DNA of 64,000 nucleotides from assembly GCA_934096015.1 (NCBI GenBank), contig CAKOLD010000001.1, positions 27,069 through 91,068 on the forward strand. The letters are read 5' to 3'. The notes beneath the pieces are model-generated. The model had not been told where the DNA came from and did no database searches. It worked only from the letters and a program-made list of their open reading frames with translations. Position numbers and translations under genes: made by a program. This DNA comes from an uncultured Bacilli bacterium. Its GTDB lineage: Bacteria > Bacillota_I > Bacilli_A > RF39 > UBA660. Shown in pieces: positions 15,776 through 53,665 of this stretch (the stretch's first letter is position 1; each line of letters opens with the position of its first letter).

Positions 15776-16921
15776 TTGCAAAACATAAAATGTAAAGAAG
15801 GGAGTAAATCATTGAATAATTGTGATATAAGAAAAAATCCATCATGTTGTAATAATTTTCCTAATCCTCAAATAGGACCTACGGGACCTACAGGGCCTTT
15901 TGGACCAACAGGTCCTCAAGGTATTCAAGGCATTCAAGGTATTCCAGGAGAAACTGGACCTACGGGACCTCAAGGTATTCAAGGAATCCAGGGTATTCAA
16001 GGTATTCCGGGAGCTGTTGGAGCAACAGGACCTACGGGACCAACGGGACCTCAAGGAACTGCTGGAACTCAAGGAGTTACTGGTCCGACTGGACCTCAGG
16101 GAGAAACAGGACCTACGGGACCAACGGGACCTCAAGGAACTGCTGGAACTCAAGGAGCTACTGGTCCGACTGGACCTCAGGGAGAAACAGGACCAACGGG
16201 GCCAACAGGTCCTCAAGGAATAACCGGAACTCAAGGAGTCACCGGTCCGACTGGGCCTACGGGGCCAACGGGCCCAACAGGCCCTGCTGGAACTGCAGAT
16301 ACCATAAGTATAGGAAATGTAGAAACTGGAGACGCAGGAACTGCAGCACAAATAACAGACACTGGAAGTGGAACTAATCACATTTTAAATTTTGTGATTC
16401 CTAAAGGCACTACTGAAACTACACAACGTAATGCCTACCTGGTTACATTTAATGAAAACAATCAAAATCCAATAGATGTATTAAGCAACAACAAAATTCC
16501 ACTTACAAAAAAAGAAATAGATATAACAAATATAGTAACTCTAGACCCAACAGATAATACAATTCAATTTAATGTTCCGGGGTACTATCAAATCAATTTT
16601 ACTGCTTTTGCATATGCAAGTGATAATGGAAGAGATTTTGATCAAACAAAAGATTTTGTATCTATCGGATTAAGAACGGCTGGTACAGACGACATATATG
16701 TTGGTGCTAGTAAATGGACAAATTCAACAATAGCCACTGAAATAACGGGCCAAGGAATAATTTCAGTACCAGATATTTCTACTCCATTTGAATTAGTAAA
16801 CTTAAGCCCTAGTACTATTCACTTAACAAGTCCAGATATGAATTATATTAAATCAAGTTCATATTTTACAAACCCACTAGTAACTATTACAATTGAATAC
16901 TTAGGAAGACAAAATATATAA
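15776..16921 (+). CDS. BclA-like collagen-triple-helix repeat protein (exosporium/surface glycoprotein candidate)
   Basis: The N-terminal region is followed by about 150 residues of G-X-Y repeats dominated by GPT/GPQ/GIQ triplets. The C-terminal domain of about 200 aa is non-collagenous and beta-rich. The likely start is the TTG at 15812, downstream of a GAAGGGAG RBS. Confidence 0.7.
16028..16207 (+). repeat. tandem 90-nt direct duplication inside the collagen-like region (30-aa unit [16 protein letters not shown](V/A)[13 protein letters not shown])
   Basis: Two near-identical 90-nt units with 1-2 mismatches can be read directly at 16028-16117 and 16118-16207. Confidence 0.8.
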
Positions 16922-16965
16922 AAGAGTTTTTAACTCTTTTTTAAAATAAAGAAAGGAAATTTTAA

Positions 16966-18036
16966 ATGAAAATATGTGTTTACGCCATCGCTAAAAATGA
17001 AGAACAATTTGTTGATAGATGGTACAACTCAATGAAGGAAGCAGATGAAATATATGTACTTGATACAGGTTCCACAGATAATACGGTTAAATTATTAAAA
17101 GATAAAGGAGTAATTGTAAAAATTAAAGAAATAAATCCTTGGAGATTCGATACTGCCAGAATTGAATCTTTAAAAATGGTTCCTGAAAATACCGATTTAT
17201 GTGTATGTACTGATTTAGATGAAATATTTCGTCCTGGTTGGAGAAAAGAATTAGAAAAATTGTACACAGGAAAAACAAGAGTAAGATATAATTACAATTG
17301 GAGTTTAAAAAATAATAAACCATTAGTAAATTTTTATTTAGATAACATTCATGTAAGAAAAGGATATACATGGACTCACCCAGTTCACGAGGTATTAACA
17401 AACACGGCCGACAATGAAACATTTGACACAATTCCAACTATAATATTAGATCATTACCCTGATTCAAAAAAATCAAGAAAATCATATTTAAAATTACTTG
17501 AATTATCCGTTAAAGAAGATCCTGAAGATGACAGAAATATGCATTACTTGGGAAGAGAATACATGTATTATCAAAAATATGATAAATGTATTAAAACTTT
17601 AAAAAAACATTTAAACCTTGAAAGTTCTAAGTGGAAAGATGAAAGAAGTGCTTCGATGAGATTTATTGCTAGAAGTTATATAGCTAAAAATAAAAACAAT
17701 CTAGCTATAAAATGGTACCAAAAAGCAATCAACGAAACACCATACTTAAGAGAGCCATTAATTGAACTAGCAATGTTATATTATAATGAAAAAAAATATT
17801 ATGAGATGCTAGATCTACTAATCAAAGCCAAAACAATTAAAAATAAAAACAAAACTTATATTAATGAACCATTTGCTTGGGATTCCACTTTAGATGATTT
17901 ATTAAGTCTAGCATATTATTACTTAGGACTATATGAAGAAAGCATTTTTTATATAAATAAAGCCTTAAAAATCGATCCTAATAATGAAAGACTTAAAGAA
18001 AATAAAAAAATATTTTTAAACTCTCAAAATCAATAA
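16966..18036 (+). CDS. family-2 glycosyltransferase with C-terminal TPR repeats
   Basis: N-terminus ICVYAIAKNEEQFVDRWYNSMKEADEIYVLDTGSTDNTV is a GT2 (GT-A fold) motif. C-terminal TPR-like repeats include YLGREYMYYQKYDKCIKTL and AIKWYQKAIN. It lies directly downstream of the collagen-like gene. Confidence 0.7.
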   Translation: MKICVYAIAKNEEQFVDRWYNSMKEADEIYVLDTGSTDNTVKLLKDKGVIVKIKEINPWRFDTARIESLKMVPENTDLCVCTDLDEIFRPGWRKELEKLYTGKTRVRYNYNWSLKNNKPLVNFYLDNIHVRKGYTWTHPVHEVLTNTADNETFDTIPTIILDHYPDSKKSRKSYLKLLELSVKEDPEDDRNMHYLGREYMYYQKYDKCIKTLKKHLNLESSKWKDERSASMRFIARSYIAKNKNNLAIKWYQKAINETPYLREPLIELAMLYYNEKKYYEMLDLLIKAKTIKNKNKTYINEPFAWDSTLDDLLSLAYYYLGLYEESIFYINKALKIDPNNERLKENKKIFLNSQNQ

Positions 18037-18192
18037 TTTATTATTACTTACAACCGTATTATTAAAAAAGTAGATTCAAAGTTTCTGCTTTTTTTATTTA
18101 TAAATAATAATTTTTTAGTAGCATATTAAAAATATTTTTAACATAAAATACAAAGTAATAACATATTTCTTCAATCATTTAAAGTATTTGAA

Positions 18193-18221
18193 TTGACAAA
18201 AATAACATCTTAGTGTAAAAT
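18193..18221 (+). promoter_or_regulatory. candidate sigma-A promoter for tRNA-Cys (TTGACA, 17 nt spacer, TAAAAT)
   Basis: -35 TTGACA at 18193-18198 and -10 TAAAAT at 18216-18221 are separated by 17 nt. They sit about 25 nt upstream of the tRNA 5' end. Confidence 0.35.
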
Positions 18222-18246
18222 TAATTTACATGGATTAATTAGAAAT

Positions 18247-18321
18247 GGGTCTATAGCCAAGTGGTAAGGCATGGGACTGCAACTCCCTGATTCGTTGGTT
18301 CAAATCCGACTAGGCCCTCCA
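18247..18321 (+). tRNA. tRNA-Cys (anticodon GCA)
   Basis: Acceptor stem GGGTCTA/TAGGCCC, discriminator T and encoded CCA. D-loop AGCCAAGTGGTAAGGC. Anticodon loop CTGCAAC. T-arm GGTTCAAATCC. Confidence 0.85.
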
Positions 18322-18332
18322 TAAATAAATTA

Positions 18333-18360
18333 AACTCGAATACTCGAGTTTTTTTTATTA
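18333..18360 (+). terminator. hairpin plus T-run downstream of tRNA-Cys
   Basis: aaactcgaatactcgag followed by tttttttt. Confidence 0.4.
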
Positions 18361-18397
18361 TTATAAATTATAGTAAAATAAAAAACCCTAAGAGGGG

Positions 18398-19984
18398 TTA
18401 TTTTAATTTATAAACATATTTTACATTTCTAGTATTAATTACAAACTCAACTGATTCAGCATTTTCTAATTCTTTAGGAATTTCAATTAATAAAACATTT
18501 TGAGATTCTAAATTTTTTCTTACTGAAACATTAATGCTTTTACTTTTACCATCGATATAATAAAATAAAGAAATAAATTTATTAAAAAACTGTTCTGAAT
18601 TTTGAATATAATTATAAATTGAACTGTTTTGGTCAATTGAAAAATTATATTCAATTTTTAATAATGTATTTTTTATGTTGTCATCTGCATTAATAACACC
18701 TGTTTTTTGTGAACAATTATCTGAAATACACACTTCATAATTATATTCATAAAAACTTACAAGATCATAATTTAAAAGACTAAAATCAGTACTTCCAAAC
18801 TGTTCTTCTAAAACTCCTAAAGAACTACCAAGATTAACATTAATAATATCTTTATCTTTATCAAGTTTTTCTGGACTTAAATTAATATTAATATATTTTG
18901 CTTTATTTGTTTTATTATCAACAGAATCATAAATTTTTAATTTTAAACCAGACAAAGATTTATTAATATCTAATTCATACACTAATATAAAATAATAATC
19001 ATCTTGATTATTTAATAAATTACCTTCGTAAGTTTTTCCTAAATCACTAAAATCTGAACTTTTAGGATTAAAAGGATAATAGTAATTTTCTCCATCGGTT
19101 AATCGAAACTTTTTAGTATCGAACAAAACACTTTCATAATTAATATTTTTAATTTTTAAATCTACTACTATATACTTTTTATCATTATTAATAATATTAC
19201 CAAAAACATTTTTTTCAGTCACATAAGATTTATTAACAGTAATTAAATAGTTCCCAGCAGAAACAGAAGTTTTCTCTCCATAATTATTATTTACAAATTT
19301 GTAATTCACAAAAAAATATATTACAAAAAAAATCGGAATTGCCACAATAATGGCTGTAAGCAAAAATTTATTTTCATAATAATAATATTTAAATTCTCTA
19401 GCTTTTTTTCTAAAAAATCGTATATATTTATATAAATTATTAGTTACTTCTAATTCAACTTCTTCACTGTCTCCTTCGTTTATTTCTAAATCTTTAATAT
19501 CTTTAGAAAAATTAAACTGTTTTACATTAAATCCAATAGCTCTAAGAATAGAAACTATTAAAAAATAATATTGTGGCAATGGTAATAAAAAGGAAATATC
19601 TCTATATGCTCTTAAAGATTCATTAGTCATAGAGGTTTCTTCCACTATAGATAATGCTGATTTTGCAAAAAACAAATAGAACATAAACACTAAAAAATAT
19701 AATATCAAAAATATATAAAATTTTCTTGGCTTATTCTTATTTTTCATCAATATCCAAATAAATAAACCAAACAGTATAATAACAATTATAAATAAATAGA
19801 TTAATCCTGGAATATATTTACCACTAAGTCCTAAAGTATTTGCTGTTTGATTTTGAGCAAGATTATTAAATAATTTTGTTAATAGATAAGATTTATAAAC
19901 TACATAAATTATTAAAACACTTAATATTAAATGAAATAATTTAAAATGTTTAATCATAAAAGCATAAGGCTTTTTAAATACCAT
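18398..19984 (-). CDS. polytopic membrane protein with a C-terminal extracytoplasmic DUF4352-like beta domain
   Basis: 528 aa with about 5 N-terminal TM helices, an acidic cytoplasmic loop and one further TM. The roughly 300 aa external domain has the pattern KYIVVDLKIKNINYESVLFDTKKFRLTDGENYYYP. Confidence 0.45.
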   Translation of the reverse strand: MVFKKPYAFMIKHFKLFHLILSVLIIYVVYKSYLLTKLFNNLAQNQTANTLGLSGKYIPGLIYLFIIVIILFGLFIWILMKNKNKPRKFYIFLILYFLVFMFYLFFAKSALSIVEETSMTNESLRAYRDISFLLPLPQYYFLIVSILRAIGFNVKQFNFSKDIKDLEINEGDSEEVELEVTNNLYKYIRFFRKKAREFKYYYYENKFLLTAIIVAIPIFFVIYFFVNYKFVNNNYGEKTSVSAGNYLITVNKSYVTEKNVFGNIINNDKKYIVVDLKIKNINYESVLFDTKKFRLTDGENYYYPFNPKSSDFSDLGKTYEGNLLNNQDDYYFILVYELDINKSLSGLKLKIYDSVDNKTNKAKYININLSPEKLDKDKDIINVNLGSSLGVLEEQFGSTDFSLLNYDLVSFYEYNYEVCISDNCSQKTGVINADDNIKNTLLKIEYNFSIDQNSSIYNYIQNSEQFFNKFISLFYYIDGKSKSINVSVRKNLESQNVLLIEIPKELENAESVEFVINTRNVKYVYKLK

Positions 19985-21920: not shown

Positions 21921-22273
21921 TGGTGGAGCCGAGCGGAATCGAACCGCTGTCCAAAATAACTTCAAAATAACGTCTACAGGTTTAGTTAGAATTAAAATTT
22001 CATTAATAAAAAAGTATCTAACAAACTATTTATTAACTAAGTTTATAAATTATTCATTTTTTAATCTAAACAAATTAAAAAATATATCTTGTATATATGA
22101 ACCAAATATTAATCTACAAGAAAACCAATATTCAGCGCCAAAATTGCTAAATTAAGCAAATGCTAAGGCAGTATTATAATTATTGTCAGTTAATTTAAAC
22201 TGTGCTACTTAGGATTAGCTACCACCTGCAATTAAATCAAAACATTATTCTGTCGAAACCAATAAACGGCCCC
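21921..22273 (-). ncRNA. ssrA: tmRNA (ssrA), about 353 nt
   Basis: Minus strand 5' end is GGGGCCGUUUAUUGGUUUCGACAG. The 3' end GGUUCGAUUCCGCUCGGCUCCACCA gives a tRNA-Ala-like acceptor/T-arm. The internal tag reading frame GCA CAG UUU AAA UUA ACU GAC AAU AAU UAU AAU ACU GCC UUA GCA UUU GCU UAA gives the tag AQFKLTDNNYNTALAFA. Confidence 0.85.
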
Positions 22274-25978: not shown

Positions 25979-26761
25979 TCATAACCCAATTTCTATGTCA
26001 AAAATTTCCTTAACATTTTTATTAGTAATTCTTGCTATTTCATCTAAAGAAACGTCAAATAAATTCGCTAAAAATAAAGCAATTATTTTTATGTTTTTTG
26101 GACTATTTTGAGAACCACGATAAGGAACTGGTGCTAAAAAAGGTGAATCAGTTTCTAACACCAAGTGTTCTAAACCTACTTTCTTTATAACATCTTTAAG
26201 ATTACAGTTTTTAAAAGTTATTACTCCATTAATTCCAAGTTTATAACCCATTTTTACGTACAACATAGCTGTTTCGTAACTGCCATTAAAACAATGAATA
26301 ACTCCTTTAAGATTATATTTTTTTAATATATTTATAGTATCCTGTGTTGCTTCTCTAGAATGTATTACCACAGGATAATTATATTTTTGAGCCAAGTCTA
26401 ATTGATACTCAAATAACTTTATTTGTTCTTTTTTATTATTTTTATCATGATAATAATCTAAACCAATTTCACCTATAGCAATTATTTTACTAGTACTTAT
26501 ATTTTTAATAATGTTGTCTAAAACACTATAATCTTCAAAAACATTATCAGGATGAATTCCAAGACACCCATATATATTTTCATAAGTTTCTGATAATTTT
26601 AAAACTTCTCCAATAGAACTTATATTATCTGATGCAACAAAAAATTTATTAACATCATTTTTAAAAGCTTCAAACAAAACCGGTTCTAAATTATTATAAT
26701 ATTCATTATATAGATGACAATGAGTATCAATAAATTTATAATTCATACTATTCATTTTCAA
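25979..26761 (-). CDS. tatD: TatD-family metal-dependent DNase/hydrolase
   Basis: FIDTHCHLY...GEIGLDY...VIHSR... are TatD motifs. Immediately downstream of metG, as with B. subtilis yabD. Confidence 0.85.
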   Translation of the reverse strand: MKMNSMNYKFIDTHCHLYNEYYNNLEPVLFEAFKNDVNKFFVASDNISSIGEVLKLSETYENIYGCLGIHPDNVFEDYSVLDNIIKNISTSKIIAIGEIGLDYYHDKNNKKEQIKLFEYQLDLAQKYNYPVVIHSREATQDTINILKKYNLKGVIHCFNGSYETAMLYVKMGYKLGINGVITFKNCNLKDVIKKVGLEHLVLETDSPFLAPVPYRGSQNSPKNIKIIALFLANLFDVSLDEIARITNKNVKEIFDIEIGL

Positions 26762-27080
26762 TTCTCTGAAATAAAATTTCTGGCTTTTTCAAAAGTGTAC
26801 CTGATTTATAATTACCAAATTCTTTTGCACTATCGTATGTTTTTAAATTACAATTTATTAAATCAAAAATTTTCTCAGCAGTATCTGGCAAAAAAGGTTG
26901 TAAATATACCGTACATATTCTAATTGATTCAATAAGATTGTACAATACAGTTTTTAATCTATCCGCCATATTTTCATCTTTTGCCAACAGCCAAGGAGTT
27001 GTTTCATCTATATATTTATTACAGCTTCTTAAGCAAAAAAATACTTCATCAATTGCTTCAGAAATTTTTAATTTATCCAT
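26748..27080 (-). CDS. metG: methionyl-tRNA synthetase, C-terminal anticodon-binding fragment (separated from the catalytic part by an in-frame TAA)
   Basis: SCNKYIDETTPWLLAKDEN aligns to the MetRS anticodon-binding helix bundle. It is in the same frame as 27126..28280. Confidence 0.65.
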   Translation of the reverse strand: MDKLKISEAIDEVFFCLRSCNKYIDETTPWLLAKDENMADRLKTVLYNLIESIRICTVYLQPFLPDTAEKIFDLINCNLKTYDSAKEFGNYKSGTLLKKPEILFQRIENE

Positions 27081-27125
27081 TTTGTTTTTAAAATGATTAG
27101 GTAACTCTAAAATTTTACATTTTAA

Positions 27126-28280
27126 TTATTCATCAATAGGTAAAGAAACATTTTTATTTTCTACAATCCCATCAAAATATTTATAACTCATTGAGATAGT
27201 TCTATTAACCAAATTTCCCAATATATTTGCTAAATCAGAATTATTTCTTTCTATTATCAAATCTTCTGTAATAACTCCATCATCTGCAAAAGGAATTTCA
27301 TGAAGTACAAAATATCTTATAGTATCTACCCCATATTTATTAACCAACTCATCAGCATACAAAATATTTCCTTTACTTTTGCTCATTTTGTCACCACCAG
27401 AAAGTAACCACGGATGTCCAAAAACTTGTTTAGGTAAAGGTAAATCCAAAGCCATTAAAATTATTGGCCAATAAATAGTATGAAATCTAATAATATCTTT
27501 ACCAATTAAATGTAAATCCGCAGGCCATAATTTTTTGAATTCATCAGTAATAGAATCAGTATCATATCCAATATTAGTAATATAATTAGTAAGCGCATCT
27601 AACCAAACATAGATAATATGTTTTTTATCAAAAGTTACTGGGATCCCCCATTTAAAAGAAGTTCTAGATACACATAAATCTTGCAAACCAGGTTTTAAAA
27701 AATTATTAATCATTTCGTTCTTTCTTGATTCTGGTTGTATAAATTCATTGTGATTTTCAATATATTCAATTAACCTGTCTTGATACTTTGATAATTTAAA
27801 AAAATAAGCTTCTTCACTCTTTTTACTTACATCACGTCCACAATCAGGGCATTTACCATTAATTAATTGAGTTTCTGTAAAAAATGATTCACAAGGAACA
27901 CAATACCATCCTTCATATTTTGATAAATAAATATCTCCTTGTTCATATAATTTATTAAATATTTTTTGAACTTTTTCTTCATGTTGTTTATCAGTAGTCC
28001 TAACAAAACGATTATAAGTTGTATTCATTAAATCCCAAATATTCTTAATTTCATCAGCAACTTTATCCACATATGTTTGTGGTGTTACACCAGCTTCTTT
28101 TGCTTTTAATTCAATTTTTTCTCCATGTTCATCAGTACCAGTCTGAAAATAAACGTCATATCCTTCTAATCTCTTATTTCTTGCTATAGCATCTGCCAAA
28201 ACTATTTCATATGTATTACCAATATGTGGTTTACTAGATGTATAAGCTATTGCAGTAGAAATATAATATTTTTCTTTCAT
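27126..28280 (-). CDS. metG: methionyl-tRNA synthetase, catalytic N-terminal portion (HIGH and KMSKS motifs)
   Basis: PHIGNTYEIVLADAIAR is the HIGH region. Zn knuckle CPDCG. KMSKSKGN. It ends with TAA at 27126-27128, 15 codons before the in-frame downstream fragment. Confidence 0.85.
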   Translation of the reverse strand: MKEKYYISTAIAYTSSKPHIGNTYEIVLADAIARNKRLEGYDVYFQTGTDEHGEKIELKAKEAGVTPQTYVDKVADEIKNIWDLMNTTYNRFVRTTDKQHEEKVQKIFNKLYEQGDIYLSKYEGWYCVPCESFFTETQLINGKCPDCGRDVSKKSEEAYFFKLSKYQDRLIEYIENHNEFIQPESRKNEMINNFLKPGLQDLCVSRTSFKWGIPVTFDKKHIIYVWLDALTNYITNIGYDTDSITDEFKKLWPADLHLIGKDIIRFHTIYWPIILMALDLPLPKQVFGHPWLLSGGDKMSKSKGNILYADELVNKYGVDTIRYFVLHEIPFADDGVITEDLIIERNNSDLANILGNLVNRTISMSYKYFDGIVENKNVSLPIDE

Positions 28281-28283
28281 TTA

Positions 28284-28530
28284 AATTTCTCCTTCCATAA
28301 TAAAAAACATGAACAAAAGGACGAAAAAATTCCGCGATACCACCTTTATTCATGTTTTAGCATGCTCTCAAATTTTTAACGCAATTAACGATTTAAACTC
28401 CAGAACCATGTTCATTGTTTTTTTATAATTCTCTTTCACCATTTAAGAACTCTCTAAATATAAAGCCACAATTACTCTTTCCTTCTTCGTCTAACAAGTG
28501 TATTCTAACATAATATTATTTTTTATACAA
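28284..28530 (-). promoter_or_regulatory. T-box riboswitch leader (Met specifier) upstream of metG
   Basis: Minus-strand T-box sequence AAAGGUGGUAUCGCGGAA (plus 28330-28348). Intrinsic terminator ACAUGAAUAAAGG...CCUUUUGUUCAUGU plus U-run overlaps the antiterminator. AG-box GAAAGAGUA. Candidate specifier AUG-A in CAAUGAACAUGG. Confidence 0.7.
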
Positions 28531-38191: not shown

Positions 38192-38212
38192 TATAAACAT
38201 CCTTTTACTAAT

Positions 38213-38292
38213 AAAAAAAGCGCACATCAACAGAGGTTGTTATGGCTGCTGTCTTCCGACTCTGACCAGGTTTCAACTTATCAATTGCGCAA
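38213..38292 (-). ncRNA. ffs: small SRP RNA (4.5S/scRNA-type, ffs)
   Basis: Minus-strand ACCUGGUCAGAGUCGGAAGACAGCAGCC matches conserved domain IV, including the GGAA tetraloop. It is closed by the GCGCA/UGCGC helix and followed by a U-tract. The tadA-scr-dnaX position is conserved with B. subtilis. Confidence 0.6.
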
Positions 38293-38333
38293 ATAAATTA
38301 TAACAAATTTAAAGTTAGTTAACAACCCTATGG

Positions 38334-38604: not shown

Positions 38605-41055
38605 TTACTCTTCTTCTTGATCGCTATTATCAGTAGTTTCTTCGTAATGCGATACAACACTTATTGCTGATACACTTTGTGAATCTTTTAAATTTATTAA
38701 TTTAACACCTTGAGTTACTCTGCCAAGTTGAGATATTTGATCAATTGGCAAACGAATAACTATTCCTGAATCAGTAATAATCATTAAATCCTGATCATCA
38801 TCTACAATCTTGAATGCAATTAAATTACCATTCTTTTCAGTAATACTTAAAGCCTTAACACCTTTACTTCCGCGTTTAGTCTTTCTATATTCTGATAATA
38901 CTGTTTTTTTACCATATCCATTTTTTGTAACAATTAAAATGTTATTAGAATCATCTGCTACATCTAATCCTATACATAAAGATGAATCTAAATTAATTCC
39001 TTTAACTCCAGAAGCTGTTCTTCCCATAACACGAATTTCATCTTCGTTAAATATTACCATTCTTCCTTCACTAGAAGCTAAAATAATGTTATTATCACCA
39101 GTCGTTTTTCTAACACCAATTAATTCATCATTATCTTTCAACGAAATTGCTATTTTTCCTGAAGTTCTTATATTATCAAAATCTTCTATTCTTGTTTTCT
39201 TTACCAAACCTCGCTTCGTTGCAAATAGTAAATATTTATAAGAATCATCATTATTTGTTAATTTTACCATAGAATTGATAGTCTCATCTTTTTCTATTTG
39301 TAATAAATTGATTATAGGTAATCCTTTTGATTGTCTAGAATATTCAGGGACTTCATATCCTTTCAATCTATATACTTTACCCTTATTAGTAAAGAACAAT
39401 AAGTAATCATGTGTTGATAAGTTTATCATTTGTTCAGCAAAATCTTCATCATTGGTTGACATTCCCTTTACACCGACTCCACCTCTATTTTGCGATTTAA
39501 ATGTATCAACAGTTGTTCTTTTTATATATCCTTTATTTGTTAGAACAATCATAACGCTTTCTTCAGGAATCAAAGATTCATCTTCAATATAATCAATTGC
39601 TGTCATATCAATCTCTGTTTTTCTATCATCTCCAAATTTGTCTTTAATTTCTAACATTTCTTGTTTAATTATTGCTAAAACCTTATTATCATCACTTAAA
39701 ATACCTCTTAAACGATCAATTTCTTTTAATAAAGCTTCTAATTCTTCCTCAATTTTAGCTCTTTCCAAACCAGTTAAACGCCTTAGTTTTAACTCTAATA
39801 TTGCATTACATTGAATATCATCTAGATTGAAACGTTCCATTAATTTAGTTTTAGCATCAACATCTGCTTCAGCTTCCCTAATAATACTAATAACCTCATC
39901 TAAGTTATCTAATGCGATTTTATATCCATTCAAAACGTGGACTCTATTTTCAGCTTTATTAAGTTCAAACTTTGTCCTTCTGATAATTACGCTTTTTTGA
40001 TAATCAATATATTTAGCAATGATATCTTTTAATCCTAAAGTCTTTGGTTGCCCATCATCAAGCATTAATAAATTAATACCATAACTTGTTTGTAACTGAG
40101 TATGTTTATATAAATTATTTAAAACAACATTGGCATTAGCTTCTCTTTTTAAAGTAATTACTACTTTAACACCATTTTTTTGATTAGACTCATCATGTAA
40201 ATCAGCAATACCATCTATTTGTTTTTCACGTACTAACTCACCAATACGTTCAATAAACATTTTTTTATTAACTTGATAAGGAATTTCTCTTACAATTAAT
40301 CTATTTTTCCCATTATGTTCTTCAACATCAACCTTTCCTCTAATTGTAATTGAACCTTTACCAGTTTCATATGCTTTCTTAATTCCTGAATTTCCTAAAA
40401 TTTTTGCACCTGTAGGAAAATCTGGACCTTTAATATATTGCATTAATCCTAATGTATCAATTTCCGGATTATCAATATACGCAACACAACCATCAATAAC
40501 CTCTTCTAGATTATGAGGAGGAATATTTGTAGCCATACCCACAGCGATTCCCATAGTTCCGTTTACTAAAATATTAGGAAATTTACAAGGCAAAACAACA
40601 GGTTCTTCTCTAACATTATCAAAATTAGGTCTAAAATCAACAGTATCTTTATTAATATCTCTTAAAAGTTCTAAAGAAATTTTAGATAATCTTGCTTCTG
40701 TATAACGATATGCCGCTGCTGAGTCACCATCTATTGAACCAAAATTACCATGTCCATCTATCAAAACATATCTATAACTAAAATCCTGCGCCATTCTAAC
40801 CATAGCATCATAAACCGAAGAATCTCCATGTGGATGATATTTACCTAAAACGGCTCCGACAGTAGTTGCACTTTTTCTGAAAGGTTTATCAGGTGTTAAA
40901 CCATCCTCATACATGGTATAAAGTATTCTTCTATGAACTGGTTTTAAGCCATCTCGTAAATCAGGTAATGCTCTAGCTACAATTACACTCATCGAATAAT
41001 ACAAAAAAGAATTTTCTATTTCATCTACAATATTTTTCTGTCTTAATTTATCCAT
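38605..41055 (-). CDS. gyrA: DNA gyrase subunit A
   Basis: [26 protein letters not shown] ... YHPHGD. 816 aa. Confidence 0.97.
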
Positions 41056-41064
41056 AAAACCCTC

Positions 41065-42975
41065 CTATATATCCAAATCATCTGCATAAACTGCATTTTC
41101 TTCAATAAATTTCTTTCTTGGTTCTACATCTTCACCCATTAATATTTCAAAAGCTTTATCCGCTGCTATAGCATCCTCAATGGTTATTTGAACTAAAGTT
41201 CTATGCTCAATATTCATCGTAGTGTCACATAACTCTTCTGGGTTCATTTCTCCTAACCCTTTGTTTCTACTTACTTCTACCTTTGTAGTTTCTGGTAAAG
41301 AAGCTAAATATTCGTCTCGTTCTTCATCTGTTAAAACATATTTAGTAGTCTTTCCATGTTTAATATTATACAAAGGAGGTTGTGCAGCATATACATAACC
41401 ACCTTCAACAATAGGTTTAAAAAATCTATAAAATAATGTTAAAAGTAAAGTTCTAATATGTCCACCATCGACATCGGCATCGGTCATGATTATAATTTTA
41501 TGATATCTTAATTTAGTAATATCAAACTCATCACCTATACCAGTTCCAAAAGCAGTAATCATACTCCTAATTTCTGCATTTGCCAAAGCTCTATCTAAAC
41601 GAGCCTTTTCAACATTTAATATTTTTCCTCTTAAAGGCAGAATAGCTTGAGTTTTAGGATCTCTACCACCTTTTGCAGATCCACCAGCTGAATCACCCTC
41701 GACTATAAAAAGTTCAGATATACTTGCATCTTTACTAGAACAGTCAGTTAATTTTCCCCAAGTATTTGGTAAATCTAATCCACCTTTTCTACGAGTTAAT
41801 TCACGAATTTTTTTTGCAGCTACCCTTGCTCTAGATGCTGTCATACATTTTTCAATAATAACCCTTGCTGCATCAGGATTTTCCATTAAATATCTCTCAA
41901 ATCCTTTAGAAAAAACATCTGAAGCTATCTTTTTTACTTCACTATTACCTAATTTTGTTTTAGTTTGACCTTCAAATTGAGGATTAGGATGCTTACAAGA
42001 AATTATCATCGTTAAACCTTCTCTTGTATCTTCTCCTGTTAAATTATCATCATTATCTTTTAAAAATTTATTTGTTCTTGCATAATTATTAATAATTCTA
42101 GTTAATGCCTGTTTTACACCATCTTCGTGCGTTCCACCTTCTGTAGTATGAATATTATTTGTAAAAGAATAAATGTTGGGATTATAAGAATCATTATATT
42201 GCATTGCAACTTCTATTAAAATATCATTTTCAGTTCCTTCAACAAATACTATGTCATCATGAAGTGGTTTCTTATCTTTATTAAGCATTTGAACATATTC
42301 AATAATACCACCATTATAATGGAAAATATCCTTCTTTTCATCATCTCTCAAATCAATAAGAGTAATCCTTATTCCTTTATTCAAAAAAGCCATTTCTTGC
42401 AATCTTTTTGCTAAAATTGAATAACTATATATAGTTGTTTCAAAAATTTCAGGATCAGCTTTAAAACTAACAGTAGTTCCTGTTCTATCAGGATCACATT
42501 CACCAATAACCTTCAAACTTTCAACAGGTTTTCCACCATTTTCAAACCTTTGAAAAAATACTTTTCCTTCCCTATATACCTTTACTTCCAACCAATCACT
42601 AAGTGCGTTAACAACGCTGGCTCCAACTCCGTGTAATCCACCACTAACTTTGTAGCCTCCGCCACCAAATTTTCCTCCAGCATGTAAAACAGTAAAAATT
42701 GTTTCAATTGTTGAAAGGCCAGTTTTCTGATTCATACCTGTTGGCATTCCTCTACCGTCATCTTTTACTGTAATAACGTTATTTTTACCAATTTCAACTT
42801 CAATATCATCACAATAACCAGCTAAAGCTTCATCAACTGCATTATCAACAATTTCCCAAACCAAATGATGTAATCCCATTTCATTTGTATTTCCTATGTA
42901 CATACCAGGTCTTTTTCTTACTGCTTCTAAGCCCTCCAAAACCTGTATGGCATTATCAGAATAATTATCTTTCAT
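41065..42975 (-). CDS. gyrB: DNA gyrase subunit B
   Basis: [16 protein letters not shown]...[16 protein letters not shown] is the GHKL ATPase signature. Toprim region [10 protein letters not shown]. Confidence 0.97.
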
Positions 42976-44060
42976 ATTTTTTCCTCCACTATACCATTAT
43001 CAACAATAAATACTTTACTATCTCTAACTATTTTTCTTTTAACTTTACTTAATTCTGTAGTCGTTATAAACGTCTGAACATCATCACTTATATAACTTAA
43101 AATATTATTTATTTTTTCTCTATCTAATTCACTAAATAAATCATCCAAAATAAGTATAGGATAATTACCTCTTATATTTTTAAACATTTCTAATTCCGCC
43201 AATTTAAAAGCAATTATAGCATTTTTTTGTTCTCCTTCACTACCATAATCTTTTAAATTAGTATCATCTTTAAAAAATATAAAATCATCATGGTGAACTC
43301 CAAAATGAGTTTTACCAAAATTAATATCTTTTTCTTCATATTTGATATATTTTTCCTTTATTTGTTCCCTACTCAGATCATAATCACTTACATATTTTAC
43401 AAATAACGAATCAGATTTACTTATTTTAAAATATATATCTTTTATTAAACAATTAATATCATTTATAAATTTCTTTCTAAATTCAAATATTTTGATTCCA
43501 TAATCTATAATATTATTAGTTAAAACTTCTAAATATTGTTTTGAAGCATAACCATTATACATTAATGTTTTCAAATAAGAATTACGTTGCTTTACTAACT
43601 TATTATAATTGTTTAACAAGCACAAATATTCATTGTCAAGTTGAGATAATTCCATATTTATTAGTTTTCTTCTAGTACTAGGAGTATCTTTTATTAACTT
43701 TAAATCATCAATACTAAAAAGTATTACATTAATTTTAGAAACATATTCAGATAGTTTTTTTACTCTATTATTATTAATATTTACTCTTTTATCGTCATTT
43801 GATATCACAATTTTATAATTATCAATAAATGTTGATTTTATATCAGCATCAACTTTCAAAAAATCGCAATCTTTTTTAATTAATATACCATCTGTTTGGC
43901 CTCTAAAAGATTTAGTAAAAGCTAAAACAAATAAAGCTTCCACTATATTTGTTTTACCCATCCCATTTTTTCCTATAATTATGTTTTTTTTAGGTGAAAA
44001 ATCTAAGTTCAATTTGTCATAATTTCTAAAATTTACTAAATTCAAATTATTAACTTGCAT
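42972..44060 (-). CDS. recF: DNA replication and repair protein RecF
   Basis: [18 protein letters not shown] is Walker A. Signature region DDLFSELD. Canonical gyrB-recF position. Confidence 0.9.
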
Positions 44061-44163
44061 CTAAAACCATATTTTCACCCCAAAATTAAATTTTTAGTAT
44101 TTTTACATACTCCTATACCCGCTATAATTATAGCACAAATTAGACTAACAAAAAAGAGAAAAC

Positions 44164-44625
44164 TCATTTTTCTCCTCTTCTTTTTCTTAAAACATATTCC
44201 AATCTATTAGCTTTTAATATTTGATTATTTAAAACATTGTAACTTAAAGAAAATTCCAAACTTTCTTCATTTAAAAACTGTACAATACTTTTATTTTGGT
44301 CTTTATCAAAATAATATTTATCTATATTATTCAAACTTATCCAAGCACACTGTTTTAAACGAGGAGAAGTTGTTGGAAAAAAGACAATAGGATTATTTTC
44401 CTCTACTATTATGGGAGCTTTATAACTAATTCCAATTAAAGAATCTGTTCCTTTTATTCTTCCATTCATAGAACTTCCATAATATTTACAATTAAAATCC
44501 ATTATCTTATTTGGTTTACTATCAACCAAAAAGCAATCATCCTCTTCATATACTAAAGACTTTTTTTCTCCACATGGAATTATAGCCAATGTTTTTTTTG
44601 AAATAGAATAATTTTTCATATTCAC
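44164..44625 (-). CDS. comK: ComK-family protein (competence transcription factor homolog)
   Basis: LAIIPCGEKKSLVYEEDDCFLVDSKPNKIMDFNCKYYGSSMNGRIKGTDSLIGISYKAPIIVEENNPIVFFPTTSPRLKQCAWISLNNI aligns along its length with B. subtilis ComK (AVLPEEIDGK..CSKIIEKDCVFYV...SCRFFGSSYAGRKAGTYEVTKISHKPPIMVDPSNQIFLFPTLSSTRPQCGWISHVHV). Confidence 0.7.
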   Translation of the reverse strand: MNMKNYSISKKTLAIIPCGEKKSLVYEEDDCFLVDSKPNKIMDFNCKYYGSSMNGRIKGTDSLIGISYKAPIIVEENNPIVFFPTTSPRLKQCAWISLNNIDKYYFDKDQNKSIVQFLNEESLEFSLSYNVLNNQILKANRLEYVLRKRRGEK

Positions 44626-44716
44626 CCCCTAACCCATAATTCTTATAACACTATAGAGATGTCCATAAATGTCATAATTTGTCATAAAAAAAGAAAAATA
44701 CATTTTTTGCATTTTT

Positions 44717-45835
44717 CTAATAAGTTTTAATAGGCAGAATTAATTGAATTAGAGTTTCATCACTTAATGATTTTAATATAATTGGACTACTATCATTATT
44801 TAAAAGAATCAAAAGTTCTTCTTCATTAAAAGTTCTTAAAGCTTCCATCATATATTTAGCACTAAAAGAAATAGCCATCTCATTTTCTGTATTTTTTGTA
44901 GCTTTAACTTGATCTTCTACTTTACCAATTTCAGACGAATAAGAACTAATGAAAAGCATATCTTTTTTTGTTTCCATTCTAACTATATTTTTATCTTTAC
45001 TTTGTGTTAATAACGCTGCTCTATCAATTGAAGAATAATAATCATTTAAATTAGTATTTATAATCATATCAAATTCATTTGGAATTAAATTATTAACATT
45101 TGGATAAGTTCCACTTAAAAGATTTGTTTGAAAAATCAAATTTTTATACTTAAATAAAACTTTATTACTAAATAAATGAACTTCTAAACTATCTTCTTCT
45201 GTTAAAATTTTATCTAATTCAGTAATATTTTTTCCTGGAATTACAATATCAACAGTTTCTGGATAATCATTTTCAAGAACAATTGTTTTTTTTGCTAAAC
45301 GATATGAGTCTGTTGCTACACATTCCATAACATTTCCATTAATCTTTATATTAATTCCTGTTAAAAGAGGTCTAGATTCTTGCATAGATACAGCAAAAAT
45401 AGTTTGCTTAATCATTTTTTTAATAACTTCACTATCAATTACAATTGGAGTTTTAGCATCTTCTAAAATAATTTGTGGATAATCCTCACTATTTAAACAA
45501 TTTAAATTATATTGACTTGTTTCTGTATAAATTCTAATTTTTAATCCATCTATAACTTCAATATTAATAGCATCACTAGGCATTTTCCTAATAATATCAA
45601 TAATGTATTTACTTTGAATAATTATAGTACCTGTTTGCTCTATATTTATTATATCTTCCTTTTTTATAAAAGTTTTTATAGTTAAATCACTATCACTAGC
45701 TAGTAAGTATAAACCTTCATCTGTTAATTGAAACATTATTCCATTCAAAATAGGTATAATATTTTTTGGACTAATTGCTTTTACTACGTTACTTAAATTT
45801 TCTAATAAAATATTTTTATCAATTGTTAATTTCAT
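44717..45835 (-). CDS. dnaN: DNA polymerase III beta sliding clamp
   Basis: 372 aa in the dnaA-dnaN operon position. The three-domain clamp pattern begins MKLTIDKNILLENLSNVVKAI. Confidence 0.9.
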   Translation of the reverse strand: MKLTIDKNILLENLSNVVKAISPKNIIPILNGIMFQLTDEGLYLLASDSDLTIKTFIKKEDIINIEQTGTIIIQSKYIIDIIRKMPSDAINIEVIDGLKIRIYTETSQYNLNCLNSEDYPQIILEDAKTPIVIDSEVIKKMIKQTIFAVSMQESRPLLTGINIKINGNVMECVATDSYRLAKKTIVLENDYPETVDIVIPGKNITELDKILTEEDSLEVHLFSNKVLFKYKNLIFQTNLLSGTYPNVNNLIPNEFDMIINTNLNDYYSSIDRAALLTQSKDKNIVRMETKKDMLFISSYSSEIGKVEDQVKATKNTENEMAISFSAKYMMEALRTFNEEELLILLNNDSSPIILKSLSDETLIQLILPIKTY

Positions 45836-45957
45836 TTTTATTCCTTCTTTCTTATATAAGTATTATCTTTATTATTAGCGTGTAAAATGTTGAAAAATGT
45901 ATTAATTACCTAAAACAAAAGTAAAAGTGTTTGTTAATAAATATTTAATTATCCACA

Positions 45958-47316
45958 TTATCCAATTTTTTCTTTAATTTGTTTAATCTGTTCATTCAAT
46001 TCTTCATTAGTTTTTAATTCTTCTGTTACCTTTTCTATAGCATGTAGAACGGTTGAATGATCTCTATTTCCAAACTCTAATCCGATCCTAGAAACTGTTT
46101 CTTCAGTAGTCATTCTGCAAATATACATTGCGATTTGTCTAGCATTATTAATATCCGCAGTTCTTTTTTTACTTTTTAAATTATCAACAGTTAAATTAAA
46201 ATATTCTGCAACTCCCTTTTGTATCTTAATTATATTATTAGTTCCATAATAGGATTTTCCTAAATAATCTTTTAAAGCTTCAGTTGCAAATTCTAAATTT
46301 ATGCATTGTGGAGACATTATTGCCGCATAAGCATATAATCTTGTTATTGCACCTTCTAAGTGTCTAACATCACTTTCACAATTATTCGCAATATATTCAA
46401 TAACTTCATTTTGAACTAATTTTGCTACTTCGTGCCCTGCCATCTTATCCCGTAATATTTTACATCTTAATTCAAAATCTGGTGGAAATATATTGACCGT
46501 TAAGCCCCATCTAAATCTCGTTCGTAGTCTATCTTCAAGCAATTTTAAATCATCAGGAGATCTATCACTACTAATAATAATTTGTTTATTAGAGTCATAT
46601 AAAGTATTAAATGTGTGAAAAAATTCTTGCTGTGTTTTTTCAGCTCCACCTAAAAATTGAATATCATCAATTATTAAAACATCTATATTTCTGTATTTTT
46701 CTTTAAAATGATCAACAATATCATAATTATCAGTATTTTTTTTGTTAATTCCAATAAAATCAGAAATAAATTCTTCACTTGTAACATATAAAACATTTAA
46801 ATCTGAATGGTCAACAATATAATTTCCTACAGCGTGCATTAAATGAGTTTTCCCCAGCCCACTCTTTCCGTGGATAAAAAGAGGATTGTATATTTTTCCA
46901 GGCTGTTCAGCAACCGCAACAGCTGCTGTTTGTGCAAATCTATTAGAATCCCCTATTACAAAATTTTCAAATTTATATTTAGGATTTAAGTTAGAATTAA
47001 AATTTCTTTCTTTATTTGAAATATCATCTAAAGATCTTGTTACTTGCTTTTTTTCATCTATTTCCTCATGAATTAAAAACTCCAAATCATAAGTATTTCC
47101 AGTCAAACTAGTAATAATCTCTTCAATTAAGTCATAATATGTAGTAGACAAAAATGTTTTATGAAATGACATTGGAACTTCGATAACTAATTTATCATCT
47201 TCCATAGAATACAATTTAGTATCTTTAAACCAAGTATCATAAGAAACACTCATCAATTTGTTCTTTATAACCTTTAAAAAATTATTCCAAAGTGTATCTT
47301 TGTCCAAAAAAACCAC
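45958..47316 (-). CDS. dnaA: chromosomal replication initiator protein DnaA
   Basis: NPLFIHGKSGLGKTHLMHAVGN is the AAA+ Walker A. The C-terminal DnaA-box binding domain includes VDNLKSKKRTADINNARQIAMYICR. Confidence 0.97.
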   Translation of the reverse strand: MVFLDKDTLWNNFLKVIKNKLMSVSYDTWFKDTKLYSMEDDKLVIEVPMSFHKTFLSTTYYDLIEEIITSLTGNTYDLEFLIHEEIDEKKQVTRSLDDISNKERNFNSNLNPKYKFENFVIGDSNRFAQTAAVAVAEQPGKIYNPLFIHGKSGLGKTHLMHAVGNYIVDHSDLNVLYVTSEEFISDFIGINKKNTDNYDIVDHFKEKYRNIDVLIIDDIQFLGGAEKTQQEFFHTFNTLYDSNKQIIISSDRSPDDLKLLEDRLRTRFRWGLTVNIFPPDFELRCKILRDKMAGHEVAKLVQNEVIEYIANNCESDVRHLEGAITRLYAYAAIMSPQCINLEFATEALKDYLGKSYYGTNNIIKIQKGVAEYFNLTVDNLKSKKRTADINNARQIAMYICRMTTEETVSRIGLEFGNRDHSTVLHAIEKVTEELKTNEELNEQIKQIKEKIG

Positions 47317-47616
47317 CCCGCATTCATGACACCTTTTTCTACAGATAATTTTAAACTACTTTTTCACAAAATAAAAGACAAAATTTTTAAAATTTGCAAA
47401 ATCCACAAAATATCAACATAATTTTCAACACACAACATCACTAAATAAGCTAAAAAACAAACTTTTCAACATTTTCCACAAATTGAAATTCACATCAATA
47501 TTAAAATTTCCACAATTAACGTTTAAAAATAAATTAAAATAAAAATCAAAATAAAATTGACATCTAAAGAGTAATGTTGTAGAATAAAGTAGCTAAAAAG
47601 AGGTGGAGGTGTCAAA
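47317..47616 (+). promoter_or_regulatory. dnaA-rpmH intergenic region: oriC-type cluster of co-oriented DnaA-box-like 9-mers (TTNTCCACA variants) plus dnaA/rpmH promoters
   Basis: AAATCCACA at 47399-47407, TTTTCCACA at 47472-47480, ATTTCCACA at 47506-47514 and TTTTTCACA at about 47360. The background is very AT-rich. A perfect TTATCCACA also sits at 45949-45957 in the dnaA-dnaN spacer. Confidence 0.5.
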
Positions 47617-47739
47617 ATGAAAAGAACTTATCAACCAAATAATCGTAAAAAGAGTAAAAAACATGGTTTTTTTGCTAGAAAAGTAACGAATATTTTAAAA
47701 AATAGAAGAAAAAAAGGACGTAAACGTTTATGCAAATAA
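47617..47739 (+). CDS. rpmH: 50S ribosomal protein L34
   Basis: [54 protein letters not shown]. Below the ORF-track length cut-off. Confidence 0.9.
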
Positions 47740-47740
47740 T

Positions 47741-47762
47741 ACCACATTTATGTGGTTTTTTC
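47741..47762 (+). terminator. hairpin ACCACA-ttta-TGTGGT plus TTTTTT between rpmH and rnpA (attenuator/terminator)
   Basis: Perfect 6-bp stem immediately followed by a T6 run. The rnpA RBS GGAGG follows at 47768. Confidence 0.5.
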
Positions 47763-47779
47763 TTCATTTGGAGGCAAAA

Positions 47780-48097
47780 ATGAAAAAAGAAGAAAGAGTG
47801 AAGGATAATATTTTATTTAATGACATTATCAAAAAAGGCCTAAAATTACAAAATAAATATTTTATTATATATTATAAGGATAATAATTTAGAGAAAAGTC
47901 GTTTTGGTATTGCAGCTGGAAAAAAATTAGGAAATGCAGTTACAAGAAACAAACAAAAAAGAAGAATTAGGATGTTATTAGGTGAAAATAAAAAATTATT
48001 TGAAAAAAATAGAGATTATATTATAATAATAAAAGAAGCATGTCTTAAAGCCAAATTTGATATTCTTCAACAAGAAATAAAAAATATAATGAAATAG
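47780..48097 (+). CDS. rnpA: ribonuclease P protein component
   Basis: MKKEERVKDNILFNDIIKKG...RFGIAAGKKLGNAVTRNKQKRRIR is the RnpA RNR motif region. Start is taken at the ATG at 47780 after GGAGG. Confidence 0.85.
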   Translation: MKKEERVKDNILFNDIIKKGLKLQNKYFIIYYKDNNLEKSRFGIAAGKKLGNAVTRNKQKRRIRMLLGENKKLFEKNRDYIIIIKEACLKAKFDILQQEIKNIMK

Positions 48098-48104
48098 GTG
48101 GAAA

Positions 48105-49055
48105 ATGAACAAAAAAAATTTAAAAAAAATAGTAATACTTATTGCAGCAGTGCTTTTATTAACAACAGGTTGTACACAATATGTTACCGATAACAAAAAT
48201 AAAAGAATCACAAACGAGGAAACAGGTCAAAGTTTAACAAGTAATTTGTTATGTAAGCCAACTGGCAGTTTGTACAATATCTATGAAAAATATGAAAAGT
48301 ATATGACCGTAAAACTAAAAGACTTACCAGAATGTAAAAATATTAAACCATTTAATACAAAAAATTATAGTGGTTTATGGGAAAGTATTTTTGTTTCTCC
48401 AATAGCTTGGTCAATAGTAAATCTTGGAAAATTAGTTAAAAATTATGGTATTTCCGTAATGCTAATAGGAATATTTATCAGATTATTATTGATGCCTTTA
48501 AGCATTAAGCCATTAAAACAGTCAGAAAACTTAAAGAAAGCTCAGCCAGAAATAGAAAAAATAGAGAAAAAATATAAAGACAAAACTGATTCTGATTCAA
48601 TGATGAAAAAGAGCCAAGAAACTATGTTAGTATACAAAAAATACAACATTAATCCACTAGGAAGTTGTTTATTATCATTTATTCAATTTCCATTATTCTT
48701 TGCTTTTCTAGAAGCTATCAATAGAGTACCAGCAATATTCGAGGGAAATTTATGGTCACTTCAATTAGGTACTACACCAATGATTGGAATTAAATCAGGA
48801 AATTATGTATATTTAATACTTATCCTTATTATTATATTAACCACGTACTTCTCATTTAAATTAAGTATGAATAATGGCATTAACTCAGAACAACAAAAAC
48901 AAATGCAATTTATGACAACATTTATGTTAATCTTTATCTCAATTGCATCATTTAGCTTGCCAACCGCAATTGCACTTTATTGGTGCGCAACAAACGGATT
49001 AAACGTTTTACAAACTGTGATATTTAAAAAAATGAAAGATAGAAAAGGAAATTAG
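48105..49055 (+). CDS. yidC: membrane protein insertase YidC/Oxa1 family (lipoprotein form)
   Basis: Lipobox LLLTTGC. Five-TM core. Canonical rnpA-yidC-jag order. Confidence 0.85.
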   Translation: MNKKNLKKIVILIAAVLLLTTGCTQYVTDNKNKRITNEETGQSLTSNLLCKPTGSLYNIYEKYEKYMTVKLKDLPECKNIKPFNTKNYSGLWESIFVSPIAWSIVNLGKLVKNYGISVMLIGIFIRLLLMPLSIKPLKQSENLKKAQPEIEKIEKKYKDKTDSDSMMKKSQETMLVYKKYNINPLGSCLLSFIQFPLFFAFLEAINRVPAIFEGNLWSLQLGTTPMIGIKSGNYVYLILILIIILTTYFSFKLSMNNGINSEQQKQMQFMTTFMLIFISIASFSLPTAIALYWCATNGLNVLQTVIFKKMKDRKGN

Positions 49056-49059
49056 TAAT

Positions 49060-49671
49060 ATGGAAGTAAAAGTATATGAAGGAAAAACAAAAGAAGAGAT
49101 TATTGAAAATATAAATAATGAATTAAATTTAGAAGAAAAAGATTATGTTTATACTGTAGAAACGACTAAAGGGTCTCTATTGAAAAAAAGTATGACTAAA
49201 ATGAATGTCTATTTGTTAACAGATCTTGCAGAATATTCAAAAAGTATTTTAGATGATATTCTCCAAAAAATGGGAATTGAAACAAAATATGAAACAAAGA
49301 TAAGAGATAATCAAATAGAAATAAAAATGTTTTCTGATAATAATTCACTTTTAATTGGAAGTGAAGGAAGAACATTAAAATCATTGAATTTGATTTTACG
49401 TCAAGCCATTGCCAATGAAATAAATGTTTATCCAAACATATACTTAGACGTTGAAAATTATAAAGAAAAACAACAAAAAAGATTAGAAAGACTAGCTAAT
49501 AACTTAGCTAAAGATGTAATAAGAACTAAAATAGAAATTAAGATGGATAATATGAACGCTTTTGAAAGAAGGATTGTTCATAATGCACTATCAACAAATA
49601 GTAAAGTAACCACTGTTAGTGAGGGTGTAGAACCCAATAGACATGTAATAATAAAATTAAAAGAAGACTAG
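49060..49671 (+). CDS. khpB: Jag/KhpB RNA-binding protein (KH + R3H domains)
   Basis: C-terminal R3H motif ...MNAFERRIVHNALS.... Position after yidC. Confidence 0.8.
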   Translation: MEVKVYEGKTKEEIIENINNELNLEEKDYVYTVETTKGSLLKKSMTKMNVYLLTDLAEYSKSILDDILQKMGIETKYETKIRDNQIEIKMFSDNNSLLIGSEGRTLKSLNLILRQAIANEINVYPNIYLDVENYKEKQQKRLERLANNLAKDVIRTKIEIKMDNMNAFERRIVHNALSTNSKVTTVSEGVEPNRHVIIKLKED

Positions 49672-49747
49672 TTCTTCTTTTTTACATGTCAAATTATTTC
49701 CCGGGAAATAATTATGTGCTATAATACATTAACGAAAGGAAAAAAAT

Positions 49748-51097: not shown

Positions 51098-51105
51098 GGA
51101 TAAAC

Positions 51106-52968: not shown

Positions 52969-53665
52969 AGATGAATTTTTAAAAGAATTAAATAAAAAGA
53001 ATATAAATTTGAAAGAAAATCAAATTAATCAATTTGAAGTATTCTGTAAAGAATTATTAAATTACAATCAACATACAAATTTAACTGCAATTACTGAAAC
53101 TTCTGAAGTTTATTTAAAACACTTCTTTGATTCATCATTATTAGCGACTTCTATTAACTTTAATGAAATATCCACAATGTTAGATATTGGTTGTGGAGCA
53201 GGATTTCCTGGTATTGTAATAAAAATATTATATCCTCATTTAAAACTTACACTTTTAGATTCCAATAATAAAAAAACAAAATTTTGTCAATATATAGTAA
53301 ATAAATTAAATTTAAAAGATGTAGAAATAATAAATGAAAGAGCTGAGATATACATTGATAAAAAAAGAGAATATTATGATTTAGTAACAGCACGTGCTGT
53401 AAAAGATCTCCAAATATTAACAGAATTATCTATTCCATATGTTAAAATAAATGGCTTTTTTATAGCGATGAAATCGGATTGTAAAATAGAATTAGAAAAC
53501 AGCTTAAGAGGAATAACATTACTAGGTGGAAAATATATAGAAACAAAAAAAATAGAAAACTATATTAATTTAGGACAAAGAGAATTTATAATTATCAAAA
53601 AAATTAATAAAACCTCAATTAAGTATCCAAGAAATTATAGTAAAATAGTAAAACAACCATTGTAA
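52952..53665 (+). CDS. rsmG: 16S rRNA (guanine527-N7)-methyltransferase RsmG (GidB)
   Basis: [13 protein letters not shown] is the SAM motif. Position after mnmG. Confidence 0.85.

Follow-up and report, generated by a model that had tools for sequence, protein, structure and literature searches.

When a metagenome assembly presents an essential gene with an in-frame stop codon, does the stop belong to the organism or to the assembly? This question is raised by a 64,000-nucleotide stretch of DNA from an uncultured Bacilli bacterium (hereafter the window), in which metG, the gene for methionyl-tRNA synthetase (MetRS), is interrupted by a TAA at codon 385. The base that creates this stop codon is private to a single assembly of the species. 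We therefore favor, with a probability of roughly 0.6, the reading that the TAA stems from a consensus or base-call error in the metagenome assembly, or else represents a deleterious variant that is not fixed. The gene itself is an ordinary, conserved, T-box-regulated gene of the MetRS1 type, and its host is an uncultured human-gut Bacilli species with a G+C content of 26%.

A single metG reading frame with one internal stop codon

The locus comprises the following features, given by position in the window.

28280-26748, minus strand: whole metG frame of 511 codons with one interruption (TAA at codon 385), ending with TAG at 26750-26748
27129-28280, minus strand: metG codons 1-384, the Rossmann catalytic core and the first helix of the anticodon-binding bundle (from the list of open reading frames (ORFs), the translation, Pfam and the predicted helix 339-369)
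27126-27128, minus strand: premature TAA, codon 385; the substituted base, 27128, is T on the coding strand and A on the plus strand
27120-27122, minus strand: codon 387, Lys (AAA) in the window, Asn (AAT) in a 99.99%-identical sibling contig (from DNA comparison)
27078-27080, minus strand: codon 401, an ATG that is the earliest in-frame start past the TAA and encodes an internal Met invariant in intact MetRS
26748-27125, minus strand: metG codons 386-510 and the TAG, the remaining anticodon-binding helical bundle with invariant P429/W430 (from the translation and Pfam Anticodon_3)
25979-26755, minus strand: tatD-family gene, next in the operon (from the sequence and from gene calls transferred from conspecific contigs L001, L002 and L083)

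The upstream ORF (28280-27126) encodes 384 amino acids and is closed by the TAA (27128-27126), past which the same frame remains open for 125 further codons before reaching the TAG. Codon 401, an ATG, lies 15 sense codons, or 45 nucleotides, 3′ of the TAA. Both the stop codon and the distance to this ATG had been given in an earlier reading made from the sequence only, and both can be read directly in the DNA. Gene callers accordingly split the window copy of metG into products of 384 amino acids (P0108) and 110 amino acids (P0123).

That sequence-only reading had interpreted the locus as one gene with one internal stop codon, rather than as two genes, and this interpretation is borne out. A tblastn comparison of an intact conspecific MetRS (P0001) with the window yields a single high-scoring segment pair, which covers residues 1-510, spans the stop codon and has 99.4% identity. 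The same comparison reveals no second metG-like locus within the window, in agreement with the earlier statement that only one is present.

The tatD-family ATG and the metG stop codon share 8 nucleotides (26748-26755, ATGAATAG). This overlap suggests translational coupling between the two genes, which a real premature stop codon in metG would disturb.

The protein disrupted by the stop codon

P0001 is the product of the same gene with GAA at codon 385, and its profile scores exceed the curated cut-offs for methionine--tRNA ligase (743 bits versus 598 for NF008900, and 543 versus 336 for TIGR00398). The class I signatures, an HxGH-type motif, KMSKS and the zinc knuckle, are all present in metG. 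They occur as HIGN (residues 19-22), C127/C130/C144/C147 (zinc knuckle) and KMSKS (residues 298-302), and are invariant in 32 homologues. Of the catalytic signatures listed by the sequence-only reading, the zinc knuckle and KMSKS are therefore confirmed, whereas the motif given as ‘HIGH’ is actually HIGN, the norm for the clade. Of 80 related genomes, 75 share HIGN (window positions 28215-28226), isolates of Blautia and Roseburia among them, and the variant thus represents a trait of the subfamily rather than a defect.

The two fragments encoded by the window match Pfam families separately, with the upstream fragment matching tRNA-synt_1g (9e-113 to 3e-112) and the downstream fragment matching Anticodon_3 (3e-10). 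The tRNA-synt_1g match stops at residue 361, and Anticodon_3 matches residues 385-510 beginning at profile position 13, which places the TAA about 12 positions inside the domain. An AlphaFold model locates residue 385 in the first turn of a helix formed by residues 381-402 (pLDDT ~95), with Met401 at the end of this helix. The C-terminal bundle as a whole is modeled at pLDDT 87-98, and only this part of the model was used because the catalytic half is poor, with several stretches below 50. The stop codon had been described earlier as separating the catalytic and anticodon-binding domains. Instead, it falls inside Anticodon_3, in the first turn of the predicted helix 381-402.

Relatives of this enzyme are not interrupted in this way. 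Among the best 120 of the 8000 homologues found, lengths lie at about 510-522 amino acids with two exceptions, the 384-amino-acid product of the window itself and a 482-amino-acid sequence on a 1.9-kb contig. Across 32 homologues, the position of codon 385 is occupied by E, A, N, T, S or D. Downstream of this position lies the P429/W430 segment, through which MetRS recognizes the CAU anticodon, as is established for E. coli Trp461. Truncation at codon 385 would remove the bundle that carries P429/W430 and, barring compensation, would be lethal or close to it.

Conspecific assemblies carry GAA at codon 385

All six conspecific contigs read as DNA carry GAA (Glu) at codon 385, and each comes from a different metagenome sample (ERZ28614788, ERZ27286956, ERZ27287315, ERZ28574207, SRR29133901 and ERZ28574235). 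In these six contigs, a single uninterrupted frame joins the catalytic and anticodon-binding parts, whereas in the window this frame is broken. The TAA of the window corresponds to GAA with one G-to-T change on the coding strand. Intact 510-amino-acid proteins identical to these are encoded by two more recorded contigs (111 kb and 140 kb). Gene calls of 384 and 110 amino acids are recorded, in NCBI and ENA, only for one contig of 96,627 nucleotides, which is presumably the source of the window and part of a metagenome-assembled genome. A sense codon at 27126-27128, which the sequence-only reading had proposed to seek in raw reads, is thus found by proxy, as GAA in every other assembly, the proxy being assemblies and not reads. 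Metagenome contigs are the sole record of this species. The conspecific contigs derive from human-gut metagenome assemblies, Hadza samples included, and the three species contigs whose names state coverage were covered at 3.3-5.6x.

Over ~31 kb, the closest contig, L083 (ERZ27287315 k141_348014), shares 99.99% identity with the window and shows no indels and three differences: at 27128 (the stop codon), at 27120 (K387N) and at 41983 (synonymous, in gyrB). Outgroup comparison reveals that the K387N and gyrB changes are derived in L083. Across 21,533 bases spanning the locus, L083 and the window differ at two positions, both of which are in metG. Identity to the window reaches 100% in other contigs, across 12.4, 11.3 and 3.1 kb. 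Samples ERZ4559597 (Hadza I-L_B_1_2682), ERZ27287480 and ERZ28614778 contain contigs of this strain at 100% identity. When contigs at least 99.96% identical to the window were compared, with the ancestral state taken from outgroups at ~98.8%, the T at 27128 was the sole private derived base among 51,578 comparable window bases. Codons 3′ of the TAA hold no private change in the window copy.

Comparison with the conspecific contig L001 indicates how the gene evolves within the species. Among 20 genes compared, metG is the only one with an internal stop codon. Only 0.33% of metG bases differ from L001, compared to a regional mean of 1.2%, which indicates that metG is under constraint in this species.

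Exact-pattern scans around the stop codon gave no match in GTDB genome contigs or in JGI metagenome contigs. A protein-based scan of GTDB genomes reached a best identity of 73% among the matches listed, where the nearest genomes are named ‘MAG: Bacilli bacterium’, ‘Mycoplasma sp. CAG:956’ and ‘uncultured Tenericutes’. Contig L096, which encodes a 147-amino-acid fragment (P0124), was discarded as an informant on the window’s sample because it represents a different strain and a different sample.

An intact T-box leader does not distinguish the possibilities

Upstream of metG is a regulatory leader with the following features.

28314-28496, minus strand: Met T-box leader 5′ of metG (Rfam RF00230, 100.7 bits versus a gathering score of 93, full-length match 1-219)
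28413-28415, minus strand: AUG in the specifier position of the T-box (located with the cmscan alignment and the sequence); the next base, 28412, is the conserved purine A

The score exceeds the gathering score and the AUG specifier matches the downstream metG gene, an arrangement that is usual for metS/metG genes of Firmicutes. The claim of an intact Met T-box leader is therefore upheld by the full-length match to RF00230. However, its use as an argument that the interrupted gene is still expressed fails, because the leader shows no differences from that of L083, where the gene is intact, and is thus uninformative on this point. With an identical leader and only two differences in 21,533 bases relative to a sibling that carries the intact gene, no time has passed for decay. 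An old or decaying pseudogene was rejected for this reason, as evident by the lack of further lesions and by the presence of only two differences from L083 in 21.5 kb.

Weighing an assembly error against a genuine allele

The T at 27128 is most likely an artefact rather than a true allele. In such a case, the G-to-T change that converts GAA (Glu385) to TAA would arise as a consensus or base-call error in the assembly. Alternatively, the assembler may have picked a deleterious variant that is not fixed. A sequencing or assembly error was among the possible explanations listed earlier, and it is the one we favor because the base is private to one assembly.

Noise of the kind that could create this stop codon does occur in these data. 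L089, a Hadza contig of the same strain with 3.3x coverage, carries three private singletons at window positions 54912, 54915 and 57221, and two of these are G:C-to-T:A changes located 3 bp apart in a penicillin-binding-protein gene. These singletons probably illustrate assembly noise. Differences among near-identical assemblies comprise one transition and five transversions, compared to 138 transitions and 61 transversions between strains (Fisher p = 0.014). Furthermore, a random substitution in the window’s coding DNA has a ~6% chance of creating a stop codon, so a nonsense artefact would not be exotic. Low coverage, in every species contig for which a figure is stated, and the constraint on metG likewise favor an artefact or a variant that is not fixed.

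Several observations weigh against an error, and most of these speak in turn for a genuine, very recent nonsense mutation in the sampled cells, an explanation that we regard as possible but doubtful. First, the window consensus looks clean: there is no other private base in ~52 kb, which argues that the assembly is not generally sloppy. Second, G:C-to-T:A changes are also a common class among spontaneous mutations. Third, the private, non-synonymous K387N change of the sibling (L083 position 11161) lies only 8 nucleotides from the stop-creating base, a coincidence of roughly 1.6e-3 that the error model leaves unexplained. This closeness could reflect a local hotspot, selection or coincidence. 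Fourth, viable hypomorphic metG alleles, including C-terminal truncations, are known and have been selected as persistence mutants in E. coli and Salmonella, though these retain the bundle (PMC11004401). In addition, a lone private base in the window would produce a stop codon with a probability of only ~5%, and the status of the base as an artefact is something we infer rather than see in reads.

Cells carrying a genuine nonsense allele could survive if they possessed a second MetRS gene, such as a MetRS2-type paralogue, or if UAA were misread at a low level, so that a little complete enzyme is made and the allele acts as a hypomorph; otherwise, the allele could be a doomed minor variant. The variability of position 385 (E, A, N, T, S, D) is favorable to this explanation, since it implies that the protein would probably accept whichever residue misreading placed there. 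However, the allele is present in one assembly only, and metG is more conserved than its neighbors, which argues against redundancy. Truncation at codon 385 also strips away the bundle with invariant P429/W430, which the published persistence alleles keep.

It is unlikely that the TAA is a tolerated true allele, for example one that is rescued by rare misreading of UAA to give a strongly hypomorphic MetRS. Indeed, the reading of this gene as a tolerated natural hypomorph is unsupported by present evidence.

Decoding of the stop codon

Might UAA be read through or reassigned by this organism, such that full-length MetRS is the normal product? The frame continues perfectly past the TAA and the downstream codons are intact, as expected for a programmed stop. 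Translation termination in the window points the other way. The terminators of its 49 ORFs are TAA (28), TAG (12) and TGA (9), and the commonest stop tetranucleotide is TAAT (13 of 49 ORFs), which is the context of the metG stop codon as well. The gene for RF1 (prfA) is encoded in the window. No suppressor tRNA or other tRNA with a stop-reading anticodon is present in the window, which holds only tRNA-Cys and transfer-messenger RNA (tmRNA). The common UAA-then-U context, the presence of prfA and the lack of a suppressor tRNA in the window equally disfavor survival of a genuine nonsense allele by misreading.

Other observations bear on a programmed stop specifically. None of the other ORFs in the window contains an in-frame stop codon, and the stop at codon 385 is kept in no conspecific or homologue. 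In the 111 nucleotides around and after the stop codon, predicted folding is no more stable than that of shuffled sequence (z = +0.81). The host uses the standard genetic code. We therefore rejected programmed readthrough and stop reassignment, which we consider exceedingly improbable, because the stop codon is not conserved, TAA is a general terminator and no stimulatory structure is present. Stop-codon readthrough had been offered earlier as one explanation, but it lacks support, because TAAT is the commonest genuine termination context and no RNA structure follows.

The hypothesis of a two-polypeptide enzyme

The last explanation to consider is that MetRS is made as two pieces, residues 1-384 and a 110-amino-acid fragment reinitiated at Met401, which reassemble non-covalently. 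An in-frame ATG is located 45 nucleotides past the TAA, and gene callers predict the 110-amino-acid product (P0123). Burbaum and Schimmel reportedly found in 1991 that an artificially split E. coli MetRS can assemble. However, Met401 is invariant in 32 intact homologues, and therefore it is not an acquired start. No Shine-Dalgarno-like sequence is present within 20 nucleotides upstream of ATG401, whereas the true start of metG has AGGAG. Residues 385-400, which form most of the predicted helix 381-402, would be missing from both pieces.

The split is found in no relative, as evident by the fact that a 384-amino-acid length among the top 120 homologues is unique to the window’s own product. There are no compensating changes anywhere in metG, and nothing in its sequence appears adapted to a two-piece mode. 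We consider it very unlikely that the enzyme functions in this manner. The downstream ORF’s own Met had been advanced as a sign of two polypeptides, but the invariance of Met401, the absence of a Shine-Dalgarno sequence and the loss of most of helix 381-402 deprive it of that meaning.

Implications

If the TAA is an artefact, as we favor, then a single-base consensus error has given an essential gene of a metagenome-assembled genome (MAG) the appearance of a pseudogene or of a split gene, and the practical value of the observation is limited. If the stop codon is instead real and tolerated, it would constitute a natural and drastic hypomorphic allele of an aminoacyl-tRNA synthetase in a gut commensal, which would bear on the biology of persistence. 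Such a tolerated hypomorph would slow growth and could confer tolerance to antibiotics or stress, as do metG persistence alleles. The K387N change 8 nucleotides away would then hint at recurrent selection at this site in a wild human-gut commensal.

Other features of the window

The remainder of the window includes the chromosomal origin region and several RNA genes.

38605-53665: chromosomal origin region, with dnaA-dnaN-recF-gyrB-gyrA on the minus strand and rpmH-rnpA-yidC-jag-mnmE-mnmG-rsmG-parB on the plus strand
44164-44625: ComK-family ORF, between dnaN and recF
21921-22273, minus strand: tmRNA gene (117 bits, tag peptide DNNYNTALAFA)
38204-38301, minus strand: small signal recognition particle (SRP) RNA (53 bits)
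18247-18321: tRNA-Cys

The oriC gap is likely located at about 47317-47700. The tmRNA, SRP RNA and tRNA-Cys are all ordinary. The 3′ terminus of the tmRNA gene (window position 21921) is the exact site at which contig L001 carries an insert of ~2.4 kb (L001 positions 16361-18741) that is absent from both the window and L083. The insert contains two ORFs of 271 and 155 amino acids with no Pfam hit, and it resembles a strain-variable island at ssrA.

Comparison with known systems

The window copy differs from the MetRS1-type family in carrying TAA at codon 385 and, like its whole clade, in having HIGN rather than HIGH. The closest solved structure is that of S. aureus MetRS (7wpi, 4qrd), which aligns with residues 2-482 (E = 7e-165) and likewise has Glu at the position aligned with residue 385. 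Relative to NF008900, the match ends at profile position 512 of 648, and the C-terminal appended tRNA-binding domain is absent from this protein.

Naturally split synthetases include the alpha/beta LeuRS of Aquifex and the AlaRS of Nanoarchaeum. The window copy of metG resembles such split class I and class II enzymes in that its coding sequence is divided between a catalytic N-terminal part and a separate C-terminal part. However, natural splits are conserved in their lineages, have their own start signals and leave complete structural elements in each piece. None of these characteristics applies to metG in the window, where the interruption is not conserved in relatives, the downstream piece lacks start signals of its own and the pieces are structurally incomplete.

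The closest parallels for a tolerated interruption are the alleles metG630, metG delta-ETIT and metG83, with which E. coli and Salmonella show increased antibiotic persistence (PMC11004401). These alleles are similar to the window copy in that they are viable mutations, a premature stop codon among them, in the essential gene for MetRS (PMC11004401). However, they affect residues 569-630 of the 677-amino-acid E. coli enzyme, such that the anticodon-binding bundle stays in place (PMC11004401), whereas the stop codon in the window removes nearly the whole of this bundle.

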